A stretch of DNA of 64,000 nt. Source: Sphaerodactylus townsendi (Eukaryota). The stretch covers positions 5,952,001 to 6,016,000 of the forward strand of contig NC_059439.1 in the NCBI RefSeq assembly GCF_021028975.2, given 5' to 3'. Both the position numbers and the translations under genes were made by a program. The notes under the pieces are model-generated. The model worked only from the letters and a program-made list of their open reading frames with translations, did no database searches and was not told the origin of the DNA. Positions 3,140-64,000 of the stretch are shown piece after piece. Each line of letters begins with the position of its first letter. Within the stretch, counting starts at the first letter, position 1.

Positions 3140-3395
3140 ATTGTTGGAGACTTTCGTGGCTGACATTAGCTGGCTGTTGTGGGTTTTCCAGGCTGTGTGG
3201 CTATGGCCTACTAGGTTTTTGCTCCTAGTGTTTCACCCGCTTCTATGGCTGGCGTCTTAAGATATCTGTTATGGTAAGGTGTGTTTCTGTCCATGGCACG
3301 TTGTGGAGAATGGCGCAGCCATAGATGTGGGTGAAACTTTAAGAGCAAAAATTAGCAGGTCATGGCCACACAGCCCAGAAAACCGACAACAGCCA
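3140..3395. mobile_element. Penelope-like terminal repeats in fold-back arrangement, degenerate hammerhead motifs
   Basis: Inverted pair related to the 37340 element. Minus-strand core is mutated (CTTAAGA...GAAA). Mirror copy at about 14775-15030. Confidence 0.7.
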
Positions 3396-5045
3396 ATTTT
3401 TTCCAGCTTTCCCCTCTGCTGTAGTAAACAAGTTCTGAGTTCTTTGGCTTCTTGAACTTTAGCCTACTTTCCAGTGTAGAGTAGAAGATAAAGGGGTATT
3501 CTGGTTTGGGGTTGGGAGATCTATGTAGCTATGAAGCAAACTGTTCTAGCCCTGAGCTATCATACTGTGTCAGCTGAATATCACAGGGTTCTCACAGGGT
3601 TCTTGGGAGGATTAGATAAGTGTACATTGTCACCATCCACAGCCCTTGAGGGGGGAAAAATAAGAATTTCTTTTCAGATGTCTCCGTTAGTGGAAGTTTA
3701 TTAATCAGGTAGCTGAATGGGAAATGGGGAGCAGTCTGGGAAACCCCAGTCTGTTTGGCTGAGGATCTTAATGTATATGTTGCCCGTTTTTGTGCTTCTA
3801 ATTCATTAAAAAAATAGACACCACCTGTGTTTTTGCATTCTCTTAAAAATAGATGCAAGTTTTGTAGTCTTTGGTGAACCGACTTCAGGTTTTATTTCTT
3901 GTGACATTTTCCTTCTCCAGGGAGAGGGAAACCACATGGCTTCATGTGTGGGGTTATTCCGCAGGGTGGTATCCTGACCCTTTCCCCTGCCTCAGATTCT
4001 TCACCCTGATTTGTCTTGCCAAGAATGCAAGAAGAGATGTAGGGATGGTGCCTTCATTGGCTCTTCACACTGTTCACTTTGCACTATGTGTTGTTATTAA
4101 GGAATAAACCAACTGTGCTTAGCTACAATATGAGGTAGATTAGGATACTTTTATTTACCTTTACCCTGTTGAGAGGAACTTAGTTGTAGCAAGTTTCTCT
4201 TTTAAAAAAAACTATCGTGATTTAACATGAAATCAGAAATTAAGGCAAATGCATCATATCTGAAAATGAGTTATGACTTCATCGAACTTTTGAGAACCAC
4301 CTTTTCTTTGTAAAGAAAGGACCGTGAGGAAAAAGATCTTCATGAGTCATTGCACAGCACGATAGAAGTGTGCTGTGAGCAACTACCATGATGGACTAGG
4401 ATTTGAGGGACCCTAGTTCAAATTTCCATTTTGCCATGCTGTTCACCAGGTACTTAAGGCCAGTCACTCTCAGTCTAACCTATCTCGCAGGTTTATAAAG
4501 AGGATAATAAAATAATCCAGGAAGAACTATGTATGTCATTCTGAGCCCTGTACAGTAAGGGCAGAATAAAAATGTCCTAGATATGTGACTTGATATCATA
4601 ATGCTTTATGTTAGGCTTGATGATAGTGAGAGCCAAGGACTGGCCCAAGCTCTTCACCCACTGGTTCTGACCCTTTTACTCTTTATCTGCCAAGTACTTA
4701 CCATCAGTCCCTGCTTTTGATTGAGATTATTTACTTTTGTGGGTCGTGGTAGGGTGGCCAAAACAGAAAGGATCCCTGGGAACAAGGAATCCCTTTTAGT
4801 GTTGATTCAGCTTAGTCCTATCTACACAAGTATACTTCTTGTCATGGCTGTTTATTATAAAAGAGACACTATCTGGAGTCATGACCATTAAGCTATCTAA
4901 AAATAGGCAATCTAGGGGGTATTGTTTTCTGAAATAGTAACATGGTTGTCTTAAATATTTAAGGGGTTTATAATGTAGCCTCTAAGATTATATGTAGGCT
5001 GTTAAGTTATAAATACTTTTCAAAATAACTACAATCCTTCCTTTA

Positions 5046-5574
5046 CAATTATCCCTTCCACATCACTGGGGTTAGGGGCACAGTGCACCCTGCAATCTGG
5101 AAATCTGCATAAAATATTTTGGCCCTCCCTTCGTACTAGAACAGGAGTCTGCAAACTGTGGCCCCCCAGATGTTCATGGACTACAATTCCCATCAGCCCC
5201 TGCCAGCATGGCCAAGTGACCTTGCTGGCAGGGGCTGATGGGGATTGTAATCCATGAACATCTGGAGAGCCGCAGTTTGTAGACCCCTGTACTAAAGAAT
5301 AAGTTTGAATTTTTTCTTTTCTTTTAACTTTAAAAAAGAAATTGTGTATATTCATGGTATTAAAAGATCAAATATATTGACATTTGCTATACATACACTA
5401 TACATACATGTTATGCATTTCTGAGTTTCTAAACTTTTTCTGTGTCGTCTGCTGGCCCTCACATGTCATCTGCAGCTTCCGCAAAACTCCCCCCAAAATC
5501 CCATTTAATTTCTTATGCTGACCCGCAATATATCAAAACCACAATGGGGAAAGTTACAGTGTGAAGGATAACTG
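5046..5574. mobile_element. Tc1/mariner (Tigger-like) non-autonomous element with nested hAT MITE (5142-5289)
   Basis: TA|caattatcccttccac ... gtgaaggataactg|TA terminal inverted repeats. The inner palindromic MITE has an imperfect 8-bp TSD. Confidence 0.75.
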
Positions 5575-6074
5575 TACTTAGGAAGTACCCAGTAGGTGTG
5601 ACACATTTCAATATTTAAAAAAAAAACATTTACACTGTAAGGCTTTTTCCCTATCACTGGGGATTTGATTCAGATTACTAATTTAATTCACGTTGACTTA
5701 AATCAGTCCACTGTGCTTTGAACCAAATGTTGCTGCTCAGATACAAAACATGCAGGTCTGTTCTTGGCATAGTCAAGTTTCTGCCTGGGTTACAGTCCCA
5801 ACAAACTGCTGACCTGCTGTTGGAAGAAACAGTTGGGATAGCCCTAAAGGTTTCTTGTGTAATCCAACTGTATACTCAGAGCTGCGGTTTATTTTTCTTT
5901 GAGCCTTTCTAAAAAACTTCTGTGCTATCAGAAAAATGCTGGTATTGAAACATATCAGGTACTCTTAAAATAAAATACATATGGTAGGGGGGTTATCCCA
6001 TTTTATCCCACAACTGTGAGATTGGCTGGACTGAGAGTAAGGATTTGATCACAGCCCCCCCCCCCCCTTGCATA

Positions 6075-6362
6075 GGCAGCAGTGTCATAGTGATTAAGAT
6101 CAGGTGTAGTCTAATCTGGAGGAACTGGGCTTGATTCCCCGCTCTGCCGCTTGAGCTGAGGAAGCTTATCTGAGGAATTAGCCTGTGCACTCCAACACAT
6201 GCCAGCTGGGTGACCTTGGGCTAGTCAACAGTTCTTTGGCGCTCTCTCAGCCCCACCTACCTCACAGGGTGTTTGTTGTGAGGGGGGGAAAGGAGTTTGT
6301 AAGCCCCTTTGAGCCTCCTTACAGGACAGAAAGGGGGGGATATAAATCCAACTCTTCCTCTT
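6075..6362 (+). mobile_element. Squam3-like SINE
   Basis: tRNA-like head, CORE segment gccagctgggtgaccttgggc and tail ggatataaatccaactcttc. Confidence 0.8.
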
Positions 6363-6627
6363 GTCCACATCCAGTACTTTCCCTGCGGCACTACATTTAC
6401 TCTTGTAGACATCCTTCACAATAGCAAGACAGTTGGTTTGACAAGCTGAGTACTGGAGACTTCATGAGAGAGTTGGCTTTAGAAAGGGGCCTCCTATTAA
6501 GCTAACATGCAGAGGAGAGGTTAGGAAGCAGGATCGCGGTTACAAAATCCTATGCCACAGTACATTGTTTAGCCATGAAGGTGTGTGTCTTTTTAAAAAA
6601 AAACCTGTGCAGCAACCAATTGCCCTG

Positions 6628-6930
6628 ACTTGCATAGCCCCAGGCTAGCCTAATTTCATCAGATCTCAGAAACTCAGCATGGTTGGCCCTGACTAGTAGT
6701 TGGAGGGGAGATTACCAAGAGATACTGGGGTCATGATGCAGAGGCAGACAATGGCACCTCTGAGCATCTCTTGAAAACCCTGTGCCAAGCAGGGTTCTGC
6801 AACCTGCGGCCAATTGGCCATGCTGGCAGGGGCTGATGGGAATTGTAGTTCATGAACATCTGGAGAGCCGCAGGTTGCAGAACCCTGCCCTGTGGGGTCA
6901 CTGTAAGCCAGCTGTGACTTAACAGCAAGA
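6628..6930 (+). mobile_element. 5S rRNA-derived SINE with nested partial hAT MITE (about 6790-6887)
   Basis: Degenerate 5S internal-promoter region (gatctcagaaactcagcatggttggccctgactagtagttggaggggaga) followed by a Sauria-like body. Confidence 0.65.
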
Positions 6931-7654
6931 AGAAGGACATCTCTTCCCTTCTCCCGACAACTACGAGTTGCACATTCAGGCTTTGCCAAACTCGGCTTTT
7001 GAGAACAAATAAGTTCAAGTAATAATTCAAGTAATAATTTACAAGTAATAATTCTGCGAAGTCGGAGCTTTCTGGTGTGTGCGCTGTGAACATTCATTAA
7101 TGCAGCTTGGCAGGGCAGCCTTTGAAAGAGAGCTTTATCAAGAGGGCCTTTTTGTAAATGGGCATCAGTTTCTGCCAGACAAAGGCGGGTATGTGTTCAC
7201 ACAGTGGTGCTGTGTTAAGTTCTTGTTCCTTTGTTCCAAGGAAGGTCTTGATGTCTCATGTATGCGGGTGTTGAGTGAAAAGCGTTATTTTTCTCCTGTT
7301 CAATTGTGGTAGCATGGACGACGGGTGGCTTCTAATTGAGGAGACTTTGCAGTGGGATTTCTCTGTTGCTCCTGACACTGAAGGCCTGTTTGCCCCCTTC
7401 TGCAGCTACTTCATCATGTACTAGAAACGCCAGCAGAAAGAGAAGGGCAGAATTAGGAGTACCATGTCAACATGGTTCTATAGAGGGATGGACACAAGAC
7501 AGTTTTATTCAGGTCAATTTCATCTGGGTTAAGCAATCTACCCCATTTGCTGCTCCTTGAGCTAGGTACAGTGTGGAGGGAAGGAGTTAATGTGACACCA
7601 CCACCCCCACCCCCACGGGTTCAGAACTCCACAAGAAATGTTTGGCTGTCTTTA

Positions 7655-11287: not shown

Positions 11288-11568
11288 CAGTGGTGGGATC
11301 CCAAAATTTTAGTAACAGGTTCCCATGGTGGTGGGATTCAAACAGTGGCGTAGCGCCAGTGGGTCTGGGGGCGTGGCCTGGCCAGGAATTCCGGGGGCGT
11401 GGCATTAATAATTTCTCTGTTACTGTAAAAAAAAAGTTCCTAATTTCCAACTGGTATCTTCCTGTCCATAATTTAACCTTATTATAGCAAGTCCTATCGT
11501 CTACTGCCAACAGAAACAACTACTTTTCCTCTAATTGACTGCCTGTCAAATACTTAATACTTTCAAAT
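11288..11568. mobile_element. Left part of a CAGTGGTGGGAT-type hAT element carrying a short CR1 fragment
   Basis: Same terminus as the 60867-61682 element. About 11420-11480 translates on minus to KLWTGRYQLEIRNFFFTV (CR1 ORF2 C-terminus-like). Ends at the Penelope repeat. Confidence 0.6.
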
Positions 11569-11569
11569 A

Positions 11570-11696
11570 GGTTGGGTGCTGTGTGGTTTCCGGGCTGTAT
11601 GGCCGTGTTCTAGCAGCATTCTCTCCTGACGTTTCGCCTGCATCTGTGGCTGGCATCTTCAGAGGATGATCCTCTGAAGATGCCAGCCACAGATGC
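11570..11696. mobile_element. Penelope-like terminal repeat with fold-back, truncated at the inversion junction
   Basis: Same family as 47245-47494. Perfect 28-bp-arm palindrome at 11640-11696. Confidence 0.75.
11624..11666 (-). ncRNA. Minimal type-I hammerhead ribozyme motif (Penelope-type)
   Basis: Minus strand: UCCU CUGAAGA U GCC-AGC-CACAGAU-GC-A-GGC GAAA CG UC^AGGA. Stem I UCCU/AGGA, full CUGANGA and GAAA core, stem II, palindromic ACGU helix III, GUC cleavage triplet. Expression and activity are not shown. Confidence 0.8.
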
Positions 11697-14600
11697 TAAA
11701 CAATGTACTGTGGCATGGGATTTTGTGGCTTGATCCTGCTTCCTAACCTCTCCTCTGGTAGCTTAATGGGAGGCCGCACAAAGCTGACTCTCATGAAGTC
11801 TCAATTACTCAGCTTGGTCAAATAACTGTACTTGCTATTGTGAAGGATGTCTACAAGAGTAAATGTAGTGCATGAGAGAAGTACTGGATGTGGACAAGAG
11901 GAAGAGTTGGTTATATCCCATCTGTCCTGTAAGAGGGGCTCAAAGGGGCTTACAAAACTCTTCCCCCTCACAACAAACACCTGTGAGGTGGGTGGGGCTG
12001 AGAGCCAAGGGAACTGTTGACTAGCCAAGGTCACCCAGCTGGCATGTGTTGGGTCGTTAATTCCTCAGATAAGCTTCCCTCAGCTCAAGTGGAAGCGGGG
12101 GAATCAAGCCCAGTTCCTCAGATTAGACTGCGCCTGATCTTAATCACTGCCAGCACTGCCTATGCAGGGGGCTGTGATCAAATCCTTACTCTCAGTCCAG
12201 CCAATCTCACGGTTGTGGGATGGAAATGGGATAACCTACCATATGTATTTTATTTTAAGAGTACCTGATATGTTTCAATACCAGCATTTTTCTGATAGCA
12301 CAGAAGTTTTTTAGAAAGGCTCAAAGAAAAATAAACCGCAGCTCTGAGTATACAGTTGGATTACACAAGAAACCTTTAGGGCTATCCCAACTGTTTCTTC
12401 CAACAGCAGGTCAGCAGTTTGTTGGGACTGTAACCCAGGCAGAAACTTGACTATGCCAAGAACAGACCTGCATGTTTTGTATCTGAGCAGCAACATTTGG
12501 TTCAAAGCACAGTGGACTGATTTAAGTCAACGTGAATTAAATTAGTAATCTGAATCAAATCTGACCAAGGAAAAAAAGCTGATGTAAATGTTTTTTTTTT
12601 AAATATTGAAATGTGTCACACCTACTGGGTACTTCCTAAGTACAGTTATCCTTCACACTGTAACTTTCCCCATTGTGGTTTTGATATGTGCTGGTCCAAC
12701 ATAAAAAAATTAAATGGGATTTTTTGGGGGTTGCAGGAAGCTGCAGATGACATGTGAGGGCCAGTGACAGAAAAGTTTAGAAACTCAGAAATGCATAACA
12801 TGTATGTATAGTGTATGTATAGCAAATGTCAATATATTTGATCTTTAATACCATGAATATACACAATTTCTTTTTTTAAAGTTAAAAGAAAGAAAAATTC
12901 AAAACTTATTCACTTTAGTACAGAGGGTCACCTGAAGCTACGGCTCTCCCAGATGTTCATGGATTACAATCCCCATCAGCCCCTGCCAGCAAGGTCCTTG
13001 GCCATGCTGGCAGGGGGCTGATGAAGTGAATCCATGAACATCTGAGCTCCCACAGTTCTGAACTCCTGTTCTAGCTCTGAGGAGAGACCAAAATATTTTA
13101 TGCAGATTTCCAGATTGCAGGGTGCACTGTGCCCCTAACCCCAGTGATGTGGAAGGGATAATTGTAAAGGAAGGATTGTAGTTATTTTGAAAAGTATTTA
13201 TAACTTAACAGCCTACATATAATCTTAGAGGCTACAGTATAGACCCCTTAACTATTTAAGACAATGTGTTACTATTTCCAGAAAACAATACCCTAGATTG
13301 CCTATTTTTAGATAGCTTAATGGTCATGACTCCAGATAGTGTCTCTTTTATAATAAACAGCCATGACAAGAAGTATACTTGTGTAGATAGGACTAAGCTG
13401 AATCAACACTAAAAGGGATTCCTTGTTCCCAGGGATCCTTTCTGTTTTGGCCACCCTACCACGACCCACAAAAGTAAATAATCTCAATCAAAAGCAGGGA
13501 CTGATGGTAAGTACTTGGCAGATAAAGAGTAAAAGGGTCAGAACCAGTGGGGTGAAGAGCTTGGGCCAGTCCTTGGCTCTCACTATGTCCATTCAGCACT
13601 TAAACATTATGATATCCAAGTCACATATCTAGGACATTTTATTCTGCCCTTACTGTACAGGGCTCAGAATGACATACATAGTTCTTCCTGGATTATTTTA
13701 TTTATCCTCTTGCAAACCTGAGATAGGAGTTAGACTAGTGGCCTTAGAGGTACCTGGTGAACAGCATGGCAAAATGGAAATTTGAACTAGGGTCCCTCAA
13801 ATCCTAGTCCATCATGGTAGTTGCTCACAGCACACTTCTATCGTGCTGTGCAATGACTCATGAAGATCTTTTCCTCACGGTCCTTTCTTTCCAAAGAAAA
13901 GGTGGTTCTCAAAAGTTCGATGAAGTCATAGCTCATTTTCAGATATGATGCATTTGCCTTAATTTCTGATTTCATGTTAAATCCTGATAGTTTTTTTTAA
14001 AGAGAAACTTACTACAATAAGTTCCTCTCAACAGGGTAAAGGTAAAATAAAAATTATCCTAATCCTGTATTGTAGCTAAGCACAGTTGGTTTATTCCTTA
14101 ATAACAACACATGGTGCAAAGTGAACAGTGTGAAAGAGCCAATGAAGGCACCATCCCTACATCTCTTCTTGCATTCTTGGCAAGACAAATCAAATTGAAG
14201 AATGAGGGCGGGGGGGGGGGGGGGGGTCAGGATACCACCTGCGGAATAATACACAGCAAACCATGTGGTTTCCTCTCCCTGGGAAGGAAAATGTCACAAA
14301 GTAACCTGAAGTCGGTTCTTAGAACTACAAAACTTGCATCATTTTAAGAGAATGCAAAACACAGGTGGTGTCTATTTTTTTAATGAATTAGAAGCACAAA
14401 AGCGGGCAACATATACATTAAGATCCTCAGCCAAACAGACTGGGGTTTCCCAGACTGCTCCCATTTCCCATTCAGCTACCTGATTAATAGAAGCACCCAC
14501 TAGCGGAGACATCTGAAAAGAAATTCTTATTTTCCCCCCCTCAAGGGCTGTGGATGGTGACAATGTACACATATCTAATCCTGCAGAACTAGAGACCCTG

Positions 14601-17600
14601 TGTGATGTCCAGCTGACACAGTATGATGATAGCTCAGGGCTAGAGCGTTCTTCATAGCTACATAGATCTCCCAACCCCAAACCAGAATACTATCTTCTAC
14701 TCTACGCACAGAGAAGTAGGCTACAAAGTTCAAGCCAAAGAACTCAGAACTTGTTTACAGCAGAAGCTGGAAAAATTGGCTGTTGTGGGTTTCTGGGCTG
14801 TGTGGCCATGACCTGCTAATTTTGCTCTTAAGTTTCACCCACATCTATGGCTGCATGCATTCTCCCACAGCGATGCCATGGACAGAAACCTGCAACAGAT
14901 ATCTTAGGATACGCCAGCCATAGAAGCGGGTGAAACACTAGGAGCAAAAACCTGGTAGGCCATAGCCACACAGCCTGGAAAACCCACAACAACTTTCAAC
15001 TAATATCAGCCATGAAGTCTCCAAGCAATACAGTTTAGCAGAAAAAAAAAATGTTTGACATTTTTTGGATTTGGCATCATTAATTCAGGAGACAGAAACA
15101 AACTAACAAGAAACATGCAAGTTCAAGCCAGGAGGCCACTTTCCAAGCTGGTGTTATGCTATGCCTAACAGCCATGATCTATCTCCAAACGTTAACGACC
15201 TTTGTCAATCTACAAGGATTGTTTGTTTTATCATCTCCATAACCGAGACTAACTGGGATTGGCAAGCTTGTCTTTTAGCTCCCAGTAACTCTTTCGAACG
15301 TGCAGAAACCACCATTTGCATTTAAGCGGGTGGTTGTACTTGCTGCTAATTAGTACATACACACAAAGCCACACTAGGGAACTGCGTGGCAGCATTTAGC
15401 CCAAGAATTGAGTAAAAGGAGGAGAAAAAAAACTAGAATTGCATCAGCACAAAGCCTGAATTGTACCGAAAGAATGCATGGTAAACTAGGTGAAGGAAGG
15501 GTATATCCTCATATGCTCAGTTTACATTACTATGGCCATTTGGAGTAGACACAGGAGAATCTTAGCGAAACTACTAGGAAAGCCGTTCCGGGACAAGGCG
15601 TCAAAGCTACAGATCGTTAGGGTGAAATCCTATGGGGTATGGCAAAACGGCAACAGCCCTGATCTCATATAAAAGAATTAGAGAAGGCACATCAAGATCT
15701 CCCTGCCTGTGCCTTGGCTCTACCTTTGACCATGCCGTTGCGTTCCCTGAATGTCGACTACGTTGGCTACTGGCTTTGCTTTCTGCCTGTCCTGGCCTGT
15801 CTGGACTGGGTTATGACACCACCCTCACATGCTATTTCATCCTGACTCCAGCCTGTCCCCAGCCTCTAGCTCCTGCCTGCACAAGAGCACCTGAGGAATT
15901 TATCTTTGTTGCCATGCACCTTTTCAATTTGGGTTCTTCAGGAGGAGATACATTTATTAGTCAGTCTGGCATTTGGGTACATGTGCCGATCAATGGTGGC
16001 GATCTGTATGCGAACGATTTTAAATGTTCTAATGTTTCCAAGCTTACACCAGTCCCAGAAATGCCATCAACAGCATGGCATCCAAGAGAATAAAAGCAAA
16101 CTTTGGTTTTCCTTCGGCTTGCTACACTAAGGAGCGTGTGCTAACGAATGTTAATGTGTTCCCTATCTCTTTGGGAATAGAAATCCAGTTTAGCTTTTTT
16201 ATGAATTAATTTGTCAATTACATCTTCCTCAGTCCAACTTGTCATACCATTGATGTTAAAGGGTTTGCTTAGTCCACATTCAGAGGGGGCTTATACTGAC
16301 TGCCTGTTAACTCTTCTGGGTCTATTTTCTTCTTTATGCAGATCCAGGATTTTTACGTCCTTCTTGTCATGAGAAGATGGTAATAAAGTGTCAGGGGAGG
16401 GAGTTGATGGTATTCATCACTTCAAGATGAGTATTAGAGCTTATCAGCTCCTCCATTGCTTTTAGAGTAGCTTATTCTGCCATGGATCTATCTGACCCTG
16501 GGGCTTTTGGTTCTTTGATAGCTACTCTATGACAACTCCTGAATTCGAGATATTCCTAATTTCATGTTTGCATGATGGTTTACAGTGGAAGAATTCTCAG
16601 AGTGAAAGCTTTAAATGTATTCATTTAGAGCGAGTGGTGACGAACCTTTGGCACTCAGATGTTATGGACTACAGCTCCCATCAGCTCTCTTCCAGCATGG
16701 CTATTAATTAGCCATGCTGGCGAGCCGCTGATGATAGAATTATGAGTCTATAACATCTGAGAGCCAAAGAGTTCGCTAACACCTATAGTTCGAGAGTCAC
16801 TGTGTTGACGTCTTTTTTGACAATACAACTCAGAAAAGAATTGGGCAAATTGATCTTGGATTCTTCCTCTTATGGTAGAGTAGTTTTGCCATTTCTTCCT
16901 TTGGATTAATTAATTGTCCTTTATTTCCTTTCTTAAATGCTAGGTACATTCTAAAAATCTTCCTGGCTTTTTATGCATATTGAGATATGGTGTAGCGATG
17001 GCGAAGAGGTGGGTGAACTCTCAATCTGGGGAACTAGAGCTGGTTTGATTCCCCACTCCTCCACATATAAACAACAGACTCTTATCTTCTAGTAAAAGTG
17101 GGTGCAAGTTTGGTCCCACTCCTCTGCAGTGGACGAGCCTGCTGGCTGACCTTTGGGCTGAGTCACAGTTCTCACAGAACTCTCATCTTAGCCCCACCTT
17201 ACCTCACTAGGTGTGTGCTGTGGGGAGGAGGAAGGGACTGACATTTTGTCCAATCAACTTTGAGACTTCTTAGAGTTGAGAAAAGGAGAGGTATAAATTC
17301 AAAACTCTTCACTTCTTCCAAATCCAAGAGATGAAAGGAAATCCTGACTGTGGCTAATCAGATGGCGTAGCATAGGATGTTTGTTGCTTGGGAATGGCCT
17401 TCTTTTGGAATGAGAGTTTGTTGTTGTGCTAGTTCAATTCTGATCCAAGTATTGATCAGATGAAGTAGGCAATACAACTTGAGACATTTTCTTTTACTGC
17501 TATTCAGGTTTGGGATCGCTTTAAGATTTCACTCAAGACTCAAGTGAAATGGCTGCCGGGAAACACACTTGGTATGGGGCACTGCTGTTTTAGCGATCAG

Positions 17601-18535
17601 GGAAAGGAATTCTGTGACCATGGTACTCCAGCCACATTCATTAAAAGGGTAAGCGTTAGCGAAAAGAATTCATTAGAGGAGACATTCAAAGTCAAAGCTA
17701 TTGCCCCTCTGGGACTGTATCAAGGAACAACATGGGACTGCCTATGGACTGCCGAGAAAGCATGGGACTACTTTACAGAACTTATTTGTACTTTGAAGCC
17801 ATTTTCACTCTTTAACTTTCTGGTGATGATACTGATATGACAGCTTGTTAGGAACTGGAGGTATACTGCACATTTTCTGCAGGTACTTCATATAATGACT
17901 GGGGTCCACTACTGAGACAGTGGTAAGTGCACCAACTTCACCCCTAAGCACAGAACATGATATACTAGGACTTAGGACATCCAATAAAGATATTACTAGA
18001 GGGTACTCAAATTCCAACAAGGTTTGAGGATGATTCTCTACCAGTTCCAATCTTTTATGTGAATTAATTCCCAGTCTTAGCACATTAAGAAATTCACTAG
18101 GATGCACAACTGTGAGTTGCAGGGCAGCATCAGGCTACCAATCGCAGTTTCTAGTACTTCTGTTGTAATGCGTTTCCTGCCATGGCAGGCCTGTTGGACT
18201 GGATGGCTCTTTGGTGGACTCTTCGCGCAACACTTTTCAATTTCTGCTGGCATACTTGGAAAGGTGTTAATTTGCCTGTATTGCAGAGTCCACTCAATTT
18301 TCTTTTACATAAAATGCATCTCCTGTTCCCCTTAATTCTGAGCTTTTTTTCTTTCAAAAAAAGACCAAAAATATTTCTAAGCCCGCTTTGAACTTCTGGA
18401 AATAATCTAATTAAAAGTCAAGCAAATGTATGCTGGAAGAGGCTGCTAAGACAACAGGACATGGTTTGGTACCTAATGGGTAGCATTTGTGATTTTACCA
18501 AGGAATCCTGATTCTCTCATTTCCTATGCCCTACC
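11695..18535 (-). repeat. Right arm of large inverted duplication, indel-noisy copy (probable assembly artifact)
   Basis: Mirrors all unique sequence and repeats of 1-6573. Near-identical at about 12250-12560 and increasingly insertion-rich toward 18535. Confidence 0.95.
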
Positions 18536-19084
18536 TACAGATCACTTTGAGTTTATTTAAAACATCTTTATGCACATCAGTCATTCCCACTGCTTGGCAC
18601 TCCCTCAATGCCATTAATAACAAATATTAAGACTTTTATCATTTTGTGGGTTTTTTTCTTTTTGTAAAGCCTCTTTACTTAGGCTCTTTAACTTACCATG
18701 AAGGAAAAAAGCAAATGCTAAAACATTCTCAGAGAAGTAAATAGAGTAAAATGAAGGCAAGAACAATAAAATACCACATTATCAAAATTATAAATACAAA
18801 TAGTGCTTTAAGAAAGAAAGACGTTAAACCAAAAAGCTTAACAGAGGTATTAGACAAAACAGCATCGTGATAGAAGTAGCTACCGAAGTAATGAATACCT
18901 AAATGAACAGCAGTTTTTTTGCTTGGGTGTTGACAGCAAAGCTGGTAGTGATGAAGATAAATATAGAGTTTCCTGGGAAAAGAAATCAAAGGGCCAAGTT
19001 ACACAAATGCCACTAGAAAAGAGAGACAATCTACTACCACCAAAATGACAGGGGAGGGATGAAGCAGGAGGCCTCAGAGGAAGC

Positions 19085-19370
19085 ATCTAGAGTGATTAAG
19101 ATAAGCATACATAGTGAGAAGAGGCCCAGTTCTTTAGATATCCTGGCCCCTAGGGATACTTAGGGCTTTTAGAGAGATCAAATCAGCACTTTGACTCAGC
19201 CCAGGAAATAAACAGGAAGTTGAGGTGCAGAAACATCAAAGTTACTCCTGTCTCTCTTGCAGCTAGAATTTTTGCATCAACTGTGTTTTCCAAAAGCCTT
19301 AAATAGTCAGTCATGCCTACCGAGCACATTACAGTAATCTGATCTGGATGCTTGTATGAAGGCGTAATGT
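19085..19370 (-). mobile_element. Degraded L2 LINE 3' fragment
   Basis: Resembles squamate L2 ORF2 end (agggcttt...atcagcactttgactcagcccaggaaataaacagg). Confidence 0.5.
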
Positions 19371-20952
19371 GTGAGAACAGATCAAACAGCCCCCATCCAA
19401 AGGCACTTCAGGGGATGGGGGTGGGTTGAGCTAGAAAGGGCTTGTGGAAGCTAAGTGAGGAACCTCTCCAGGAGCACCTCTACCTGTTGAGAGGGCAGAC
19501 ACACCAGAAGCGCTGCCAAGTCCTGCTGCTGCAAAACCTCTAGAAGTTTGGAGCTGCAGCATGGGGGAGCTGTCTTCTAGTGTCCTGTTGGGATGCCAGA
19601 ATGGAAATTTGGCTGGCAGAGGAGCAGGCCAGGGAGGTTCTATGGAGCGAGAACCAATGTTAGCCTGGCGGCTCCTTCACTTGGGGTTTTAGGGTCAGTT
19701 ACGCCCCATGGCACCACCAGCTCTCAAACGTCCAGCCACCCCTTTTTGGTGGTGTATATCAACTATACTCTACCAGGACTTTTCAATGGGTGGGGGGGGA
19801 GTTTGAGGGGCTTTCCCGAAGCTCCTGGAAGCAGTGGTAAGTAAGCCCTACTGGAGTGCGCACCACTTTTTCCAGTGCTGTTCTTCATCCTACCACCTTT
19901 GGGTTTTGGATCGGGGACTCTGCAAAATCTCTTCAAAAGAGATTCAATAGAAGCCATCTCAACCCTAAACTGCAAACAGGACCGCCTCCTGTTAGCTACA
20001 CTTACCTGAGTTTTATGGTTAGTGCTAAATAAACTGGGAACCCATGCAGAAAAGTTTTTAAGCCTATCCTTGATGGGTTTCCCCTCCCAAAACAACTCAT
20101 ATTAATTGTCATCTTGTCTAAATTAAGCTCCTGTTTTTAAACTTCTAATCCTTCATTGATCTCAGGCACTGGTGCAGGGATCTCCACTGACTTCCTAGGA
20201 TCTGATGGAAAGAGAGACAGAGCTGCATGTCACCTGTACCTAGATCTTCAGGTATCACCCTGGACAATTCTGCATAAATAAATAGCATGGAAAATAAAAT
20301 GGAGCCCACAGACCTTCTCTACAGGCCAAAGGAGACAACAACAGTTTCACAACCTCTTCAGAACCAAATGAAGACGTTAACAACTGCTCCCCCAGGTCCA
20401 TATCAGCTGTGCAGCCCACAACCCCTGCTGATGGTACTAAAAGCCTCTTGAGAAGTCCAAAGGACCCAGAATTGATATGTTCTCATTAGGTAACTACCAG
20501 ACTACTAACAGAAACAGTAGTGGTCTCCTATTACACTGTTTCAAGTTTGCTTAATTTGATTATCATAAAGAATTCTAATATTATCAAGGATACAAGAGAA
20601 GAACATTAATATTCCTTCAAAGGCTAGAAATCTCTCCCCCGACCCCCACCCATATGCCGTGCCTTTGGAGGAAGCACCCTGCCACTGGCGGAAGAGGCAA
20701 TTCAAAAAGTTTGCAGCAATTTTCAATCTGGCTACATGGAAAGGAAGAGATGAGAATTTTGAGTTGCAGTTGACTGAAGGTGGGTATAACCTCAGGTAAA
20801 GCTGAATGGCTGGCTGTAAGTTGTTATGATGCCTCTTTTAACAGCTTCGCTTCCTTCTGATAGACTCTCCTTATTTTCCTTGCAAACGGATAAAAAAGAC
20901 ACCAGAAATCTCCATGGCTTTCCCCAATCCAACGAAAGCAAAACATTTAGGA

Positions 20953-21100
20953 CAGGGGTAGGGAACCTGCGGCTCTCCAGATGTTCAGGAACTACAATTC
21001 CCATCAGCCTCTGTCAGCCTGGCCAATTGGCCATGCTGGTAGGGGCTGATGGGAATTGTAGTTCCTGAACATCTGGAGAGCCACAGGTTCCCTACCCCTG
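20953..21100. mobile_element. Young palindromic hAT MITE
   Basis: Near-perfect 148-bp palindrome caggggtagggaacc...ggttccctacccctg with TSD atttagga/atttaggg. Confidence 0.9.
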
Positions 21101-21167
21101 ATTTAGGGCTACCAACAATGCTATTTTTGGAAGTACTAATACATTGTGTGGCCTGGAGGGAAAGCAG

Positions 21168-21727: not shown

Positions 21728-21789
21728 CGAAGTAGCAGCTCTTTGGGGAGCTTTTTATTGATCGCAGCCTCATCGTTATTTGAGAACAT
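21728..21789 (-). CDS. FBXL20: FBXL20 coding exon 2 (start of F-box)
   Basis: Polypyrimidine tract, then cag|ATG TTC TCA AAT AAC GAT GAG GCT GCG ATC AAT AAA AAG CTC CCC AAA GAG CTG CTA CTT CG|gtaagc = MFSNNDEAAINKKLPKELLLR. 62 nt, phase-0 junction to exon 1, LPKELLLR F-box start. Intron 1 is about 40.4 kb. Confidence 0.95.

Positions 21790-24955: not shown

Positions 24956-24956
<1 letters not shown>

Positions 24957-25032
<76 letters not shown>
24957..25032 (+). repeat. (TAA)n microsatellite, likely the tail of a short L2-type 3' end
   Basis: About 25 perfect TAA units preceded by ggggcggtctacaaat. Confidence 0.95.
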
Positions 25033-25033
<1 letters not shown>

Positions 25034-35113: not shown

Positions 35114-35248
35114 CATAGGTGTCAAACTCGCAGCCCTCCAAATGTTATGGGCTACAGTTCCCATCATCCCCTGCCAGCTTCATGCTAGCAGGGGATGATG
35201 GGAACTGTAATCCATAACATCTGGAGGGCCACGAGTTTGACACCTGTG
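35114..35248. mobile_element. Palindromic hAT MITE
   Basis: cataggtgtcaaactcg...cgagtttgacacctgtg with TSD ctctatgg/ctctatgt. Confidence 0.85.
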
Positions 35249-36404
35249 CTCTATGTGGTGTTCCAGCTCAGAGAGGAGTAGAGGTGGTTTGCCATTGCTT
35301 AAATCCCACTTTATTCAAGGGAGCTTACTCCTGGGAAAGTGTTCTTCAGATTACAGTCTTTGTCACCCATTCCCACAATCCAAGCTTCTGGGAAATATGC
35401 CAGAGTACGGCCCAGAGTACTCTGCATGAACGGGAATTCAGCACCAAGCAAACTGATGTGGAATGGATTGTCTGGATATACAACGGATATATTCCACTGG
35501 CCAATATTTCCACATAAAAATGATTGCAGCACTAAGTACTGGGGCCCCAATCTATAGGGAGAGAAAAGGTGACTTGCAGAAAGCTGCTCAGACAGAATCA
35601 TGGTTGAGCAAGGATTTGAACACAGTCCCTGTCGGTCATCCCCTAGCCATCCATAGCCAAGCTACACATTAACTCTGACCTCAGAGTTGCCATCACAACA
35701 CAGTCAGAGTTGCCATCACAACACAACAGAGTTGCCATCACAACACCATCCTGGAAGCCAAGCTGCAAGAGAGGAAAGCAAAGGAGGACAGTCAGACATG
35801 GTTTGTGTGAAGAAGTGTCAGCCATTAGGGCTCATAACCAGCCCGATGTCCTATGGAAGGCTGTCCTATGGAAGGCTGCATGTGGCATTATGCAGTAGGC
35901 AAGGTAGTCAGTACATAAAAGTCTTGCAAAAATGAGGGATAGTATACAGTAGCTCCAGAGGCTGCTAACCACTATTTAAACCTAATAGCCAGAAGCCAAG
36001 GAGAATGCCCCAGGCCTTCCCTCCTGGCTCCAAGAGTGGGAGGAAGTTCAAATGTGCACCGGAACAGCCTGAAAAGGGCAGTTGATGACAATGTGATCAC
36101 CCACCCACCCATTCTCTTCCCTTCTCTTCTGGAAAACAAGCCATCATGAATTCCAGAACTGTCCACACAAGTAAACATCTTCAGCTAGAGAACTGGGAAC
36201 CAGCACTAGGCAATATTACCACAATTTGAACTATATTAACTTTTTGCTTAGTGTACCAAAAAGAGGCTGTTTTTGTATCTTCAACTGGATGGAATCCATT
36301 TTTGCTCCTACTTCCCACCAAGCCAAGGACAGATCTTCATCACTTAGTGACAGCCTATGCCTAGAGTTTGGATTCAGTTGGTTTGCATCGGTTCTGCCAA
36401 ACCA

Positions 36405-37337: not shown

Positions 37338-37607
37338 TATTGTCGAAGGCTTTCACGGTCAGATTCCACTGGTTGTGGTGGGTTTTCTGGGCTGTGTGGC
37401 TGTGGTCTGGTGGATCTTGTTCCTAACGTTTCACCTGCATCTATGGCTGGCATCTTCAGAGGTGTATTACAGAGGGAAGGACACAGTGTGTAACAGACTT
37501 CCCTCTGTGAAACACCTCTGAAGATGCCAGCCACAGATGCAGGTGAAAAGTTAGGAACAAGATCCACCAGACCACAGCCACACAGCCCGGAAAACCCACC
37601 ACAACTA
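37338..37607. mobile_element. Penelope-like fold-back element with two divergent hammerhead motifs (37422-37462 minus; 37515-37555 plus)
   Basis: Inverted arms of about 105 bp. Left core CUGAAGA..GAAACGUU, right core CUGAAGA..GAAAAGUU. A roughly 30-nt extra tail (tgtcgaaggctttcacgg...) is present on the left arm only. Confidence 0.8.
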
Positions 37608-43402: not shown

Positions 43403-45600
43403 ATTCAATAACCTTTATTAAGCATAATTTAAAAATAAAAAAATATTAAAAGGGGAGGAAAACAGAATAAAACCTACCGTATATACTCATGTATAAGTCG
43501 AATTTTTCAGCACATTTTTAATGCTGAAAAAGCTCCCCTCGACTTATATGCGGGTCATTAAAATTTTTTGTTTGTTTTTACTTTGCCGGCCAGCAGGGGG
43601 CGCAGTTTTCATGCTAGCAGCACCAAAATTTCAGGGTACCCTCAGAAGACACTTCTGATGATACCAGCCAGGTTTGGTAAAGTTTGGTTCAGGGGGTCCA
43701 AAGTTATGGACCCCCAAAGGAGGTGCCCCCATTCCCCATTGTTTTCAATGGGAGCTATTAGTCGATGGGGCTACCCTTTTGAGGGTCCCTAACTTTGGAC
43801 CCTCAGAACCAAACTTCACCAAACCTGGCTGGTCTCATCAGGAGAGTCTCTTTATGATACCAGCCAGGTTTGGTGAAGTTTGGGTCAGGGGATCCAAAGT
43901 TATTGACCCCCAAAGGGGGTGCCCCATCCCCCATTGTTTACAATGGAAGCTAATAGTAGATTTTCTATTTCTGATAATATCCCTCTTAAAATCTAAGTTG
44001 GGTTACATTTGGACATACAGATGATGATGAGGATTCCAGTTTTGAAGGATTTTAACTCTTGTGTTTTAGCTTGGTTGCTGGTTGAGCTAAGGTTTTTGTA
44101 CTTTTAAAGTTATTGTTGATACCATATTGTTCTTGTTGACCCTCTTTTCCACTTACAGAGCCAGTTTACTGTTTTTCTTTGAAATAAATATTCAAAAACA
44201 TTTAACCTACTGATGCCTCAATTGATGTAACTTTATTGGTATCTATTTTTATTTTTGAAATTTACCAGCAGCTGCTGCATTTCCCACCCTCGACTTATAC
44301 GCGAGTCAATAAGTTTTCCCAGTTTTTTGTGGCAAAATTAGGTGCCTCGACTTATATGCGGGTCGACTTATACACGAGTATATATGGTAATCAGGTTAAC
44401 TAAGTTTTGTTCAGGGCCAAAGCAAGAAACTTTGCCACATCCTTGGTCCGTTTAGAATAACAATCGTTGAGGTGTATCTGAGTCTTAACCCTGTCGGAAA
44501 GAGCAGGTTTTGAGTTTATAATCGGCTCAATAAATTGTTTACATAAGTTAGTGTGATGGGGGCAATACAATAGAACGTGTTCTGTCGTTTCCAATGTGAT
44601 TGAGGAACATGGACAGGTCCTTTTAAGTGGCGGAATACCAAGGTATCTTCCATGTATTATTGCAGTGGGGAGGATATTGAAACGGGCCTGCATAAAAGCA
44701 CATCAAAACAGGGGACGTGAGGTTAGAGAAATAATCCGGCAAGGCTCCTGAGGATGACTGGGATATCCCATAAATCAGTGGCGAACAAGGACCAATGGAG
44801 TGGGCTAGTAGAGTTTGTTTTTCCACATCCAGAATTCTTTGTTTTAGTAAGTAAAGTATTTGGGCCTCATCATGGTTTAGAAACATATCAAAAGAGAAAC
44901 CATAGATCTTAATATAATGTAACATTTTGGAGTCCCAACTAGAATAGTGGGAATCGTTTCGACTGTGCCACATTAGGCTGTCTGGCTTCACTCTAAAATG
45001 GAGGCGAGTTCAGAAATGTAAGGTTACTATCCAAATACAAGATGTTATTAGGTTTAGGCCCAGTTCAAGATATAAAGAAGAGTGCGCCATGCAGTTGGGC
45101 AGGCCAAGAAGTGTTCAAAAGAATCTAGATAGTATTGTATCTAACACCTTCGTGGAGCCACTAAACCATACTGGGGCCCCTTAAGAGTAATTTAGGAAGC
45201 AGCTTGGTGGAAAATATTTTGATAGTAACGGGTAGATACTGGCCACCTTTAGTGAAATAGAAGCGCTTGATAGCAGTCATGTTGCGCTTAACAAGTAAGA
45301 TGGTTTGCTCAATTTGGGCTGTCCATTTCAGATTGTATTGGCATGTCACACCTAGGTATCGAAAGGTTGGTACTTGTTAAATTACATTCCTGTTTATTTT
45401 CCATTGCTCTGGTTTCCAGGATTTACCACATACCATTATCTTAGTGTAGTTGATCGTCAGAGTGTTTCTTTGGCAGTAGTTGGAGAAGGCTTGCAAGAGA
45501 TGGATCAAGCCAACACTGGTCCTTGAGAGTATTACTGCGTCATCAGCATACAATAAAACAGAGATCTTCTGGGAGTTCAGGGTAGACTGGTGACCATCGA
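43403..45600 (-). mobile_element. RTE-X-like LINE 3' part, interrupted by a Tc2-like MITE
   Basis: LLYADD near 45540, FRYLGV, ARFNILPTAIIHGRY and RTCPC...ETTEHVLLYC; 3' end taataaaggttattgaattg. Confidence 0.7.
43477..44387. mobile_element. Tc1/mariner (Tc2-like, CCGTA-TIR) non-autonomous DNA transposon
   Basis: TA|ccgtatatactcatgtataagtcga ... tcgacttatacacgagtatatatgg|TA, with subterminal cctcgacttata repeats. Confidence 0.85.
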
Positions 45601-47244: not shown

Positions 47245-47494
47245 TGTACTGTCGAAGGCTTTCATGGCCAGAATCACTGGGGTGTTGTGTAATTTCCGGG
47301 GTGTAGGGCCATGTTCTAGTACCATTTTATCCTGACATTTCACCTGCATTTGTGGCTGGCATCTTCAGAGGATCTGATGGTAGTAAAGCAAGTGGAGTAT
47401 ATATATACCTGTGGAATGTCCAGGGTGGGAGAAAGATCCATTTGCCTGTTAAAAAGTGTAAAGGGTGCAATTAACAAGCTTGATTTGCATGAAT
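47245..47494 (-). mobile_element. Penelope-like element 3' end
   Basis: Tail gtcgaaggctttcatggcc, hammerhead-bearing repeat and additional internal sequence; cut off by the CR1. Confidence 0.75.
47329..47373 (-). ncRNA. Minimal type-I hammerhead ribozyme motif
   Basis: AUCCU CUGAAGA UGCCAGCCACAAAUGCAGGU GAAA UG UC^AGGAU. 5-bp stem I and intact core; the helix III palindrome is altered (ACGU to AUGU). Confidence 0.7.
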
Positions 47495-54000: not shown

Positions 54001-54031
<31 letters not shown>

Positions 54032-57580: not shown

Positions 57581-58066
57581 AGGAGCAGCTGTGGCATAGT
57601 GGTTAAGAGCAGGTGTACTCTAATCTGGAGGAACCAGGTTTGATTCCCTGCTCTGCAGCCTGAGCTGTGGAGGCTTATCTGGGGAATTCAGATTAGCCTA
57701 TGCCAGGTGTCTGCAGCCTGCGGCTCTCCAGATGTTCATGGACTACAATTCCCATCAGCCCCTGCCAGCACGGCCAATTGCCCATGCTGGCAGGAGCTGA
57801 TGGGATTTGTAGTCCATTAACATCTGGAGAGCCGCAGGCTGCAGACCCCTGGCCTATGGACCCCCACACACGCCAGCTGGGTGACCTTGGGCCAGTCACA
57901 GTTCTTCTGAGCTCTCTCAGCCCCACCTACCTCACAGGGTGTTTGCGGGGGGGGGGGGAGGTAAAGGAGTTTGTAAGCTCCGTTGAGTCTCCTGTAGGAT
58001 AGAAAGGGGGATATAAATCCAACTCTTCTCCTTCTCCTGCTCCTTCTCCTGCTCCTCCTCCTTCTG
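57581..58066 (+). mobile_element. Squam3-like SINE with nested hAT MITE (57704-57851)
   Basis: SINE split by a palindromic MITE with TSD gcctatgc/gcctatgg. Confidence 0.85.
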
Positions 58067-60444: not shown

Positions 60445-60660
60445 AAGAGATTCCACCTGAACATTAGGAAGAACTTCCGGACAGTAAGGGCTGCCTGACA
60501 GTGGAATATGCTGCCTCAAGAGTGTGGTGAAGTCTCCTTCTTTGGAGGTTTTTAAACAGGAGCTGGATGACCATCTGTCAAGGATGCTCTGATTGTGTAT
60601 GCTTTCATAGCAGAAGGCTGGACTCAATGGCCCTTGTGGTCTCTCCCAACACTACGATTC
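60445..60660 (+). mobile_element. CR1 LINE 3' end fragment
   Basis: agattccacctgaacattaggaagaacttcc...ggaggtttttaaacag and 3' UTR. Confidence 0.8.
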
Positions 60661-60866
60661 ACTCTCCCTCATACATGCACAGAGCTCAGGCCTTTCATCT
60701 TCCTGTCTCCAACACAAATGGGGAAAATGTGTTCTGTCCCCAGAAAACTAAATATTTGTTATACAATGAAATTTGTATTGGCTTAGTCTAAATTTTAGGG
60801 ATGGTGGATGACTGCAATAGACAAACTTCTTCTGTGTCTTGCCCCCTTCTGCCATAAGCTTCCCTC

Positions 60867-61682
60867 CAGTGGTGGGATTCAAATAATTTAACAACTGGTT
60901 CTGGGATTTAAATAATTAAACAACTGGTTCTGGTGGGTTTTCCAGGCTGTGTGGCCGTGGTCTGGTGGATCTTGTTCCTAACGTTTCCCCTGCATCTGTG
61001 GCTGGTATCTTCAGATGTGTATCACAGAGGGAAGTCTGTTACACACTGTGTGATACACCTTCCCTCTGTGATACACCTCTGAAAATGCCAGCCACAGATG
61101 CAGGCGAAACAAGATCCACCAGAGTGTCCAGAGAAGTGGTTTCCAACGTTTTCGACATCACAGTACCCTTGACTTCACTCTTCATATCTCACGGTACTCC
61201 TGCCATCCTCCCCCCAGCTTCCCCTCCCAGTTCCCCTGCTTGCCACCCCCCACCTTTCCCTCCCAAGGTGAAGGGAAGCGGGGGGGGGAGTAGGGGGGTG
61301 GGAAGTGGCTGCTGACCTTGAAGCAGGCCCTACCCCCTGGTCCAGCTCCATATTGTTGCTGATGCCAGCAGGAGACACCACAAAAGTGAGGGGGGCAGTA
61401 GCATTACTGCGGCACCCCAGGGTACCATGGAACCCTGGTTGGGAATCGCTGGTCCAGAGAGAAGGAAATGTTTGGGGTATATATTGTCCATTTCCCAGGG
61501 CGGGGAACCAATCAGTAAGTGTTTGGGTGGAACTTGTTATGCAAAGTTGTGGTTGATAGTATTGTATTGCGGGTGGGGCTTATCAGTCCAGTCCAGTCAC
61601 ATTAAACAACTGTTTGTTTACAAGAACCATTTTAACAACAGGTTCTGCCGAAGTGGTGCGAACCTGCTGAATCCCACCACTG
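60867..61682. mobile_element. Complete hAT non-autonomous element with nested Penelope-like fold-back (about 60920-61123)
   Basis: TIR cagtggtgggattca/tgaatcccaccactg with exact 8-bp TSD cttccctc. The inner inverted pair has mutated hammerhead cores. Confidence 0.9.
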
Positions 61683-61999
61683 CTTCCCTCCCTACTAATG
61701 TGTTTCCTTCCCTGTAAATGAAGAGGGACAGAGCCTCTGTCAGAAAGACGACCTAAAAACGAAGCCCAAGGAGGAGAAAATATCCTTCAATCTAGTGGTG
61801 CCATTGGTCCCCCTTCCCAATTACTGACTTAATCAAAAGGCCACCAGGAAATCCCACCTTGTCCTCCCTTAAGCCCCCTCACAGGTTCTTAAGAAAGGAA
61901 TATCTTCTCCTTCCTACCCCCCAACCACAAATGGCGACACACGTGGGCACATTTATATTTATACAGGGGCAGTCCTCACACGAACAGAAACACCCCTCT

Positions 62000-62830
62000 C
62001 CCCCAAATGAGGCTGTCAATCCCGCCTTGGGAAATGCCCGGAGATTGCGGGAGGGGCTCAGAGGGGGTGGGATGAGAGCCTCACCTCCCCCCTCCAGCTG
62101 CCGGATCCTGGTGTCTGGATATGAAGATCAGGCGCCACTCCGGGAGAAATCCAGGAACAACCCCCCCCCCCCCTTGTAGGTCGGCCACAAAGCCCCGACC
62201 GACCCGCCCCCCGCTCACCTCAAAGCGGCTCTTGGTCACGCCGTTCATTTCCCTCCTCATGATGGAGGCCCGGCGGCGGGGGTCGACTCGGGTGAGGCCG
62301 GGCCAGGCCAAGCCGGGCCAGGCCTGGCCCCCCCTCGTCCTCCTCCTGGGCGGCGTCAGCAGCGGCTGCAGGCACCCCGGGCAGCCCGCCCCGAGCCCGG
62401 CCTGACGCGGCGGAGACGGGAAGCGGCGACGGCTGCGAGGAGGGCGAAACGGAGGCACCAGCCTTTCCGTCGCCTTTCTGCTCCGCCAGCCCGGGCGGCG
62501 CTGAGGCGGAGGGGCGCCTGAGGTAGGCTCGTGGCCTCCGGACGAGGGACGGAGCGTGGCGGGAAGGGGGGCAACGAAACCCGCTCAAGCCCTCAGCGGC
62601 CACCGCGAGGCCGGCCCGCCTCAACTGCAACTACTTCTTCTTCTCCTTCTTCAACCCAAAACAAAAACACTCGGCACCTGCCAGCAACAGCGCCGCTCAT
62701 TGGTCGAGGAAGGCGCAGGCTGGGGGAGGAGGGAGGGGGCAGGGGTTGCGCACGCGCATGGCCCGAGCAAGGGGGTTGCGCGCGCACCTCAGATGCCCGG
62801 AGAGGTGGCTGTGGGGGGGAACCGGCTCTC
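62000..62830 (-). promoter_or_regulatory. FBXL20: CpG-island promoter and 5' UTR of FBXL20
   Basis: Very GC- and CpG-rich region around exon 1. CCAAT box on the minus strand (ATTGG at 62699-62703), perfect NRF1-type site TGCGCACGCGCA at 62747-62758, and G-rich Sp/KLF-like tracts. Confidence 0.85.
62219..62260 (-). CDS. FBXL20: FBXL20 (F-box/LRR protein 20, SCRAPPER) coding exon 1
   Basis: Minus strand reads ATG AGG AGG GAA ATG AAC GGC GTG ACC AAG AGC CGC TTT GAG|gtgagc = MRREMNGVTKSRFE. This matches the FBXL20 N-terminus as I recall it (MRRDVNGVTKSRFE). 42 nt, canonical GT donor, A at Kozak -3, inside a CpG island. Confidence 0.95.
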
Positions 62831-62839
62831 TTGCAGGTA

Positions 62840-63364
62840 CGGTTGCCACCCTCCAGGTAGAACCTGGAGATCTCCTGGAATTACATATACTGTCCCCCGG
62901 GGGAAATTGCTGCTTTGGAGGCCGGACTATAGGAAGCTGTGGCCTGCTGAGGTCCCTCTGCTCTGAGGTTGCCAACCTCCAAGTAGTATCTGGGATCTCC
63001 TACTTGTCTGAAATGAACTGCCCTGGAGAAAATGGATGCTCTGGAGGGTGGACTCTATGGCATTCTACAGGGATGTCTGCCTCCAGAGGGAACTTGGGGA
63101 TCCCTTGGAATTTCAGCTCACCTCCAGACTATAGGGATCAGTTTCCCTGGAGAAAACGGATGCTTTGGAGGATGGCCTGTATGGCATCGAACCCTGCTGA
63201 GGTCCCTGTCCTCCCCAGGATCCATATCCAAATCTCCAGGCGCTTCCCAACCTGGATCTGGGAACCCTAATACCGTGCTGAGTTCCCTCCCTTCCCCAGA
63301 TCTCACCCTCCTCAAGCTCCACCCCCAAACCTCCAGGAATTTCCCAGCCCATACCTGGCAGCCT
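62840..63364. mobile_element. Non-autonomous DNA-transposon-like repeat (GGTTGCCA termini)
   Basis: Repeated modules ggttgccamcctcca...ccctggagaaaatggatgct...gaggtccct; ends ctggcagcct. Confidence 0.55.
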
Positions 63365-64000
63365 GATTGACCAGGCTGCAGAAAGCCAAACCTGCCCAAT
63401 GTAAATACTAGACTGGCCCCACTAGCATGTCATCAAAAAAAGGTTGGCCTCTTATATTAGTTACACTAATGCCCAATAATTTAAAAATGTTGTTTTGTGC
63501 ATGATGGGGTTGCCTTACATTTAAGCAGGGTGCAGGGGGTGTCCTTTCAAGGCAATGCCTTTTAGGAAGACCAGCCAGAATAACACAATGCACTGAGCCA
63601 GCTTCTCAGCTGTCCACAATTCTTGCCAGGCTGAGTTGGGAGGTAAGATGGCGTGGGGAAGGAAAACATTTGCATGAAGCCCTCTGGGTATAGGGTACTT
63701 AGCTGGGTTCAAGCAGCTGCAATGCCAAGGATCCTCCCCACCCCAGCATACACACCATAGCCATTCCAGTCCCCATCCAAAATGATAAGAACATGAGCGG
63801 TGCACTGTTAGCCTCTCCTAGCTCTCAGGGTAGAGGCAAACGGCAGAGAGGCAAATGAGGTAGTCCCCTTTGGGACCCCGGTGGGGAGAAAGGCAGGATA
63901 TCCATGAGTTGTTTTTTAAATGAGCTGGTGGCTGGACACACCTGTCTTACCGTGACATGCCTCTGAAGATGTCTACCATATAAATGGGCAAAACAGTAGG

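Follow-up and report, generated by a model that had tools for sequence, protein, structure and literature searches.

Background and comparison with described systems

In endonuclease-bearing (EN+) Penelope-like elements (PLEs), an inverted, 5'-truncated copy is found at the 5' end of the element, a tail of 30-40 bp is often present on one side only, insertions are flanked by target duplications, and junctions are palindromic; in Adineta, the pseudo-long terminal repeat (pLTR) carries TATA and initiator (Inr)-like motifs (PMC8557442, PMC3846280, PMC2377424, PMC8969392; here and below, published systems are described as in excerpts of the papers cited). Truncated PLEs also yield dispersed single hammerhead ribozymes and opposite-strand pairs of them 100-700 bp apart (PMC4209133). 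Here, we analyze a stretch of 64,000 nt from Sphaerodactylus townsendi (NC_059439.1, 5,952,001-6,016,000 of the forward strand), hereafter the window, to which all positions refer unless a locus is named. It contains short hammerhead-bearing repeats, several of them fold-backs made of two head-to-head arms, in and around a gene of the FBXL2/FBXL20 family. The first-pass annotation proposed that they form a non-autonomous, ribozyme-bearing class of their own. We found that this is an ordinary Penelope/Poseidon family, and both inverted pLTRs and the one-sided tail are already published features of PLEs.

The closest comparison is PAc, a Poseidon element of Anolis carolinensis. Its open reading frame (ORF) starts at stem II of the hammerhead, and the ribozyme cuts 26 nt after the start codon. 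Reverse transcriptase (RT) begins at two internal sites bounding the tail; PAc, predicted to be a dimer, acts in vitro on both strands of the target, which it cuts and extends. The ribozyme requires the element protein, RNA ends at the cut site were not seen in that account, and insertion in vitro does not need cleavage (PMC11167929). The family described here resembles PAc in the RT with a C-terminal GIY-YIG domain, the ORF start at stem II, and the optional tail delimited near +111-118 by two 3' ends (signed coordinates are relative to the element ATG). The counts of fold-back stubs, the tail asymmetry and the 5' peaks reported below for this genome lie outside the account of PAc in the excerpts of PMC11167929. 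Another possible comparison is with non-LTR retrozymes (bioRxiv 10.64898/2026.07.22.740005), which are likewise non-coding, PLE-derived and hammerhead-bearing. However, retrozymes are direct tandems with at least two same-strand hammerheads, whereas the Sphaerodactylus copies are solo or head-to-head and do not count as retrozymes on that definition.

Identity of the repeats

The repeats are almost certainly dead-end copies, namely 5'-truncated 3' ends of autonomous Penelope/Poseidon elements comprised of a pLTR, a hammerhead and an optional tail of ∼33 nt. Upstream, their genomic matches continue for differing distances into a frame with GIY-YIG at its end. At the locus L063, frames with RVT_1 (E 4e-10) and GIY-YIG (E 1.5e-6) domains are followed by an arm with a tail. 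An arm lies ∼0.8-1 kb downstream of the RT in 27 of the 30 loci with the best RT matches, and endonuclease sequence is present in the locus for 9 of the 30 best matches to the subfamily of the 47.2 kb copy. The locus L281 (668-3829) has an open ORF of 819 aa with the ATG within stem II of the hammerhead and an inverted arm in front; it has no 3' pLTR, its flank is duplicated over 233 bp at 96% (668-899 and 3597-3829), and its GIY-YIG region, in contrast to that of L063, does not pass Pfam. Three peptides submitted to Pfam as a first test had no match. The L281 translation, read by eye, contains the DKG motif and lacks a Zn-finger-like linker, excluding Neptune and Nematis by the criteria given in PMC8557442. 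As in EN+ PLEs, a single ORF with RT and C-terminal GIY-YIG is linked to the repeat, the hammerhead occupies the pLTR-ORF junction, and the tail of 30-40 nt is optional, with an inverted 5'-truncated copy and a target duplication; the placement in the Penelope/Poseidon clade is by domains, layout and motifs. Separately, three RT matches occur within 5 kb at C8:10035659-10040561, possibly a tandem array of elements.

A complete minimal type-I hammerhead (core, bulge between 9 and 10.1, G10.1-C11.1 pair, palindromic helix III) is present in L281 and in one arm of the window, 11662- (arms are denoted by core position and strand), and all these features are kept in 17 of 87 sampled arms. The initial description, Penelope-like repeats bearing a minimal type-I hammerhead whose helix III is palindromic, is borne out by the domains of L063, the L281 ORF, the layout and the core scoring. 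The minimal hammerheads of metazoan PLEs share the core, the unpaired base between 9 and 10.1, the G10.1-C11.1 pair and the palindromic 15.2-16.2 (PMC4209133); unlike them, the copies studied here show no covariation, and their helix II of 3+2 bp doubles as coding sequence of the ORF start.

A related repeat is present at all seven places initially listed (Table 1). A profile of natural copies detected 11 arms in the window, with matches at six of these places and 0 in reversed decoy DNA; the window end truncates the seventh, at 63960. The repeats at 3.1 and 14.8 kb are one insertion, so there are six distinct insertions, not seven. This is about the genome average, with copies about every 15-20 kb genome-wide. 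The four fold-back pairs of the first-pass annotation were confirmed as distinct (3.1, 11.6, 37.3 and 60.9 kb), the 47.2 and 63.96 kb copies being solo. The claim that all copies have a CUGANGA-stemII-GAAA-NN-UH layout was overstated, as the full core of 11 positions is intact in five of the ten scored arms (11662-, 37459-, 37518+, 47368- and 61014-), of which 11662- alone also keeps the G10.1-C11.1 pair and the ACGU palindrome of helix III. The cores of both 3.1 kb arms and of the 63.96 kb copy are broken; the 14.8 kb mirror, judged by the core pattern only and outside the ten-arm scoring, fails this pattern. An Rfam search of the window yielded no hammerhead match at E<=1 and returned sub-threshold miRNA matches only, all on palindromes; minimal motifs fall outside Rfam models.

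Table 1. Coordinates of repeat copies, host exons and other features
Feature	Position	Strand	Structure	Remarks
Old fold-back stub	3139..3396		Minus arm tailed (∼-20 to +116); plus arm tail-less (+5 to +86)	Both cores broken; T-rich target duplication
Subfamily B fold-back	11572..11696		Minus arm -11 to +83, tail-less; plus arm cut at duplication breakpoint 11695	Minus arm is the only fully intact hammerhead in the window (core 11662-11628)
Mirror of 3139-3396	14772..15035			Inside inverted duplication; no independent insertion
Subfamily C fold-back	37338..37607		Minus arm -26 to +115, tailed (core 37459-37424); plus arm -45 to +81, tail-less (core 37518-37553)	9-bp target duplication, read by eye from flanks
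Subfamily B solo stub	47245..47494	minus	-127 to +116; TATA block, hammerhead (core 47368-47334) and tail	G10.1-U11.1 wobble; helix III palindrome altered; sense relative to host pre-mRNA
Subfamily C fold-back	60921..61123		Minus arm -43 to +87 (core 61014-60979); plus arm truncated at +48	Minus arm: G10.1-C11.1 pair lost; plus arm: G8 and U16.1 lost
Degenerate old solo arm	63960..64000	plus	Runs ∼50 nt further (L069 1-50); tail-less end	G12 lost
J1 passengers	L283-L300, L090, L147, L198			In high-copy repeat
Host coding exon 1	62219..62260	minus
Host coding exon 2	21728..21789	minus
∼9-kb inverted duplication, right copy	11695..21078		Left copy from upstream of window (L067:7647) to 6573	Host intron 2
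∼160-nt palindromic repeat	1493-1648, 5137-5296, 6807-6895, 12959-13057, 16636-16695, 20946-21117, 35118-35250, 57697-57868

Form and origin of the copies

Across the 1.81-Gb genome, 151 evenly spaced 10-kb stretches (1.51 Mb) were sampled. The 143 arms found there form 84 clusters; scaled to the genome, this corresponds to 126,000-171,000 arms and at most ∼100,000 insertions. Exact matches to a 26-nt core pattern number 34,420 in the genome and 0 in the control. A head-to-head pair is found in 45 of the 84 clusters, which is a lower bound, as several "solos" have a short missed second arm. Same-strand neighbors occur in six clusters, and there are no tandem direct units in the window. After removal of three duplicates and two edge-cut pairs, 43 of 48 pairs were retained. 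Their lengths vary from 98 to 602 nt, and an exact target duplication of at least 8 bp flanks 23 of 37 pairs (mean 0.3 in shuffles). Exactly one arm is tailed in 36 of 37 classifiable pairs (p 3e-10 against 50:50), the remaining one having no tail at all and six more pairs being unclassifiable. The 3' ends cluster at +83-88 and +114-119.

The 5' ends also cluster. In subfamily B, 19 of 54 arms end at -16..-10, and in subfamily C, 17 of 47 arms end at -48..-42. In both subfamilies, these ends pile up 25-31 nt below a TATA block, whose first position is -43 in B (14 of 18 copies with a match) and -73 in C; an initiator-like motif at -15..-9 is present in 23 of 25 B copies as well. Since the C peak lies 35 nt further from the hammerhead than the B peak, and so tracks the promoter-like block and not the ribozyme, run-off at the RNA start is suggested. 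The G at -12 is also templated, masking any cap-derived extra G (30 solo copies, read by eye). An origin from hammerhead-cleaved RNA was considered and rejected, as merely 4 of 101 arms begin near the cut. In the open literature, we found no paper counting tail asymmetry or mapping 5' peaks in PLEs, though subscription papers, Repbase or bioRxiv supplements may hold such data.

Overall, these observations are best explained if stubs and fold-backs are made at insertion by autonomous Penelope/Poseidon elements, which we consider very probable. For the route itself, we favor, with moderate confidence, a priming and run-off mechanism. The element protein would prime reverse transcription on both nicked target strands, one cDNA starting from the +116 site and giving the tailed arm, the other from the +84 site and giving the tail-less arm. 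Both would run toward the RNA 5' end and often fall off there, at the putative transcription start, and would then be joined head-to-head via short homologies, leaving a target duplication. One cDNA per RT start site would produce a head-to-head unit with a single tail. Lying between the RNA start and the priming sites, where it overlaps the start codon, the hammerhead would therefore be copied too. The fold-back form likely arises anew at almost every insertion.

State of the ribozyme and alternative explanations

The first-pass annotation made its reading depend on covariation in stems I and II. Across 104 arms, there is none: only five double changes were found in total, four of them at a CpG-prone pair, and breaks exceed doubles at every pair. 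The decay of the core after insertion is close to neutral. In 32 arm pairs, the arms differ at 10/194 core (5.2%) and 126/1721 non-core positions (7.3%; p 0.30 in a test of low power), and decay at G12, an essential position, is on a par with other CpG sites (8/22 vs. 57/175). Each strand of a fold-back has a single sense hammerhead, and therefore a fold-back is unable to dimerize in cis. Moreover, the hammerhead is predicted to be buried in the long hairpin, the hammerhead fold costing 79, 49, and 40 kcal/mol relative to the hairpin in fold-backs of the window. The 47.2 kb solo has the hammerhead fold as its lowest-energy predicted fold, which is no more stable than those of shuffles (z 0.42); its nearest same-strand partners are 10-14 kb away, within hairpins. 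We would expect cleavage to be lacking in these copies.

Several observations weigh against the account given above, and some of them favor other explanations. The 5' peaks coincide with small palindromes and, in B, also with a polypyrimidine-AG site, which leaves the transcription start a putative one; the mapped promoter of Drosophila Penelope is TATA-less (PMC2377424), and the arm ends, taken from local alignments, are accurate to a few nt. The peaks could instead reflect a splice acceptor or structural RT stalling. Immediately upstream of helix I, the B peak is indeed preceded by a pyrimidine tract and AG; helix I is also where the intron of Drosophila Penelope ends (PMC4209133), and secondary C peaks are located at a small palindrome. 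Still, solo copies ending at -12 have no common upstream exon sequence, and the C peak is displaced together with the TATA block, making this explanation rather unlikely. For Adineta elements, snap-back has been proposed, in which an antisense template or cDNA primes itself (PMC3846280); in our opinion, this route is quite unlikely here. It is consistent with several fold-back junctions, which are short palindromes or 1-4 nt overlaps, and, among 25 well-aligned pairs, with those where the tailed arm is longer (5) or equal (5) at the 5' side. The tailed arm is the shorter one in the other 15 pairs, an arrangement that snap-back of a cDNA is unable to produce, while self-priming on antisense RNA stays compatible with it. 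The remaining adverse observations concern the core and the recurrence of one junction. Compared with the family majority, non-CpG core positions have changed less than downstream ones, at 2.8% vs. 5.0% in B (p 0.075) and 5.0% vs. 8.1% in C (p 0.02), and the arm-versus-arm comparison had little power to detect this; the core may be better kept through weak selection or, alternatively, the difference may come from master-lineage variation or detection bias. Further, a two-step junction found outside the window, J1, has 323 exact matches (0 in the control), which means that not every fold-back is made anew.

That fold-backs are a non-autonomous family of hairpins, which the Penelope RT copies as units and which are kept for the ribozyme, would fit with the recurrence of J1 and with three J1 copies having their own target duplications. 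Nevertheless, of 20 J1 loci fetched, 17 have common flanks and one ancestral target duplication, one probably so, and two have their own duplications. The shared copies are passengers in a non-coding repeat that is widespread (42 of 151 stretches; 11 empty-site matches) and has one putative hAT-type transposon end. L131, L282, and L301 are separate J1 insertions with their own flanks and target duplications, the tail of L282 being on the opposite arm; a 41-nt pattern of the non-passenger form has six matches, one of them inspected. These three insertions fit a fold-back RNA, with the junction inherited and the arms rebuilt; its source would be a hairpin or else a master element with an ORF, such as L281. 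Another junction, common to L108 and L201, turned out to be a segmental duplication. Of the window junctions, that of the 60.9 kb copy has one genome-wide match and the simple one at 37.3 kb has six. The window copies and most sampled pairs do not combine target duplications of their own with a common length and internal junction, and the arm-end coordinates are distinct in 26 of 26 well-aligned pairs. Along with the variable lengths, the stems without covariation, the near-neutral decay and the burial in the hairpin, this makes a unit-copied family very unlikely, and the class suggested by the first-pass annotation is not upheld for the window, a small remnant of the idea surviving at J1 elsewhere in the genome. 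It is possible, although doubtful, that two-strand priming from two fixed sites also accepts fold-back RNA as a template, with both arms rebuilt on an inherited junction and the tail thus free to change sides, and that the J1 hairpin, after multiplying as a passenger, thereby founded a small non-autonomous lineage re-mobilized by the Penelope RT. In that case, the ∼100,000 stubs would preserve in the genome a trace of where the RNA starts and of both priming sites. Finally, intronic hammerheads could have been co-opted for cleaving the host pre-mRNA. The best candidate is the 47.2 kb solo, sense to the gene and predicted to fold as a hammerhead. However, its stability does not exceed that of shuffles, it has the 10.1-11.1 wobble and a changed helix III, and its partners are distant and within hairpins; minimal hammerheads are inactive as monomers (PMC4209133), and the PAc ribozyme needs its protein and left no observed RNA ends at the cut site in the published excerpts (PMC11167929). 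We regard co-option as extremely improbable, and nothing points to a role of the repeats at this gene.

The surrounding locus and implications

The exon peptides of the host gene, a member of the FBXL2/FBXL20 family, match FBXL2 (PDB 6o60_C); from its N-terminus, the gene is probably FBXL20. Intron 1 (62218-21790) contains the 37.3, 47.2, and 60.9 kb copies, so the earlier placement of minus-strand copies at 37.4 and 47.3 kb in FBXL20 intron 1 holds for both positions, while the 60.9 kb copy has to be added and the gene name is putative.

The ∼9-kb inverted duplication contains the 3.1 and 14.8 kb repeats, and its copies differ mostly by indels. Its breakpoint at 11695 lies inside the 11.6 kb Penelope hairpin and removes the right arm. 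We compared sequencing run contigs against the right copy. Contigs of three runs from one study exit the window at 11695 and do not enter the Penelope arm; one run carries the left-copy letters at 11727-11731 (comparison by eye). Contig cover is little or none at 15248-15500, which proves nothing, and the sequence after 11569 in two runs has no match in the window or 20 kb upstream. Judging from these sequences, the duplication is likely false, that is, an assembly artefact. In the run contigs, depth is also very high over 11.3-11.6 kb. The stubs at 11.6 and 60.9 kb are located in or beside a repeat with a common start (11330-11570 and 60868-60925). A second, unrelated palindromic family of ∼160 nt (Table 1), below threshold against Rfam mir-5408, is probably a miniature inverted-repeat transposable element (MITE). 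Further inverted and direct repeats are found at 43621-43925 and 47767-47868/52418-52519, and the region at 48-52 kb is CpG-rich.

As a finding on the host gene or the ribozyme, these copies carry little weight because they are so frequent in the genome. Compared with inverted-pLTR PLEs in the published excerpts, the copies are mostly ORF-less, number ∼100,000 and follow the one-tail rule almost absolutely, and the data favor two-strand priming over self-priming. The one-tail rule and the pile-up of 5' ends below the TATA block may be clues to the mechanism. The origin of tandem and inverted pLTRs in PLEs is considered an open question (PMC8557442). The large number of stubs, together with a close and biochemically active relative, makes the formation of pLTRs testable, and the one-tail rule and the 5' peaks lead to exact predictions that apply to PAc in vitro.

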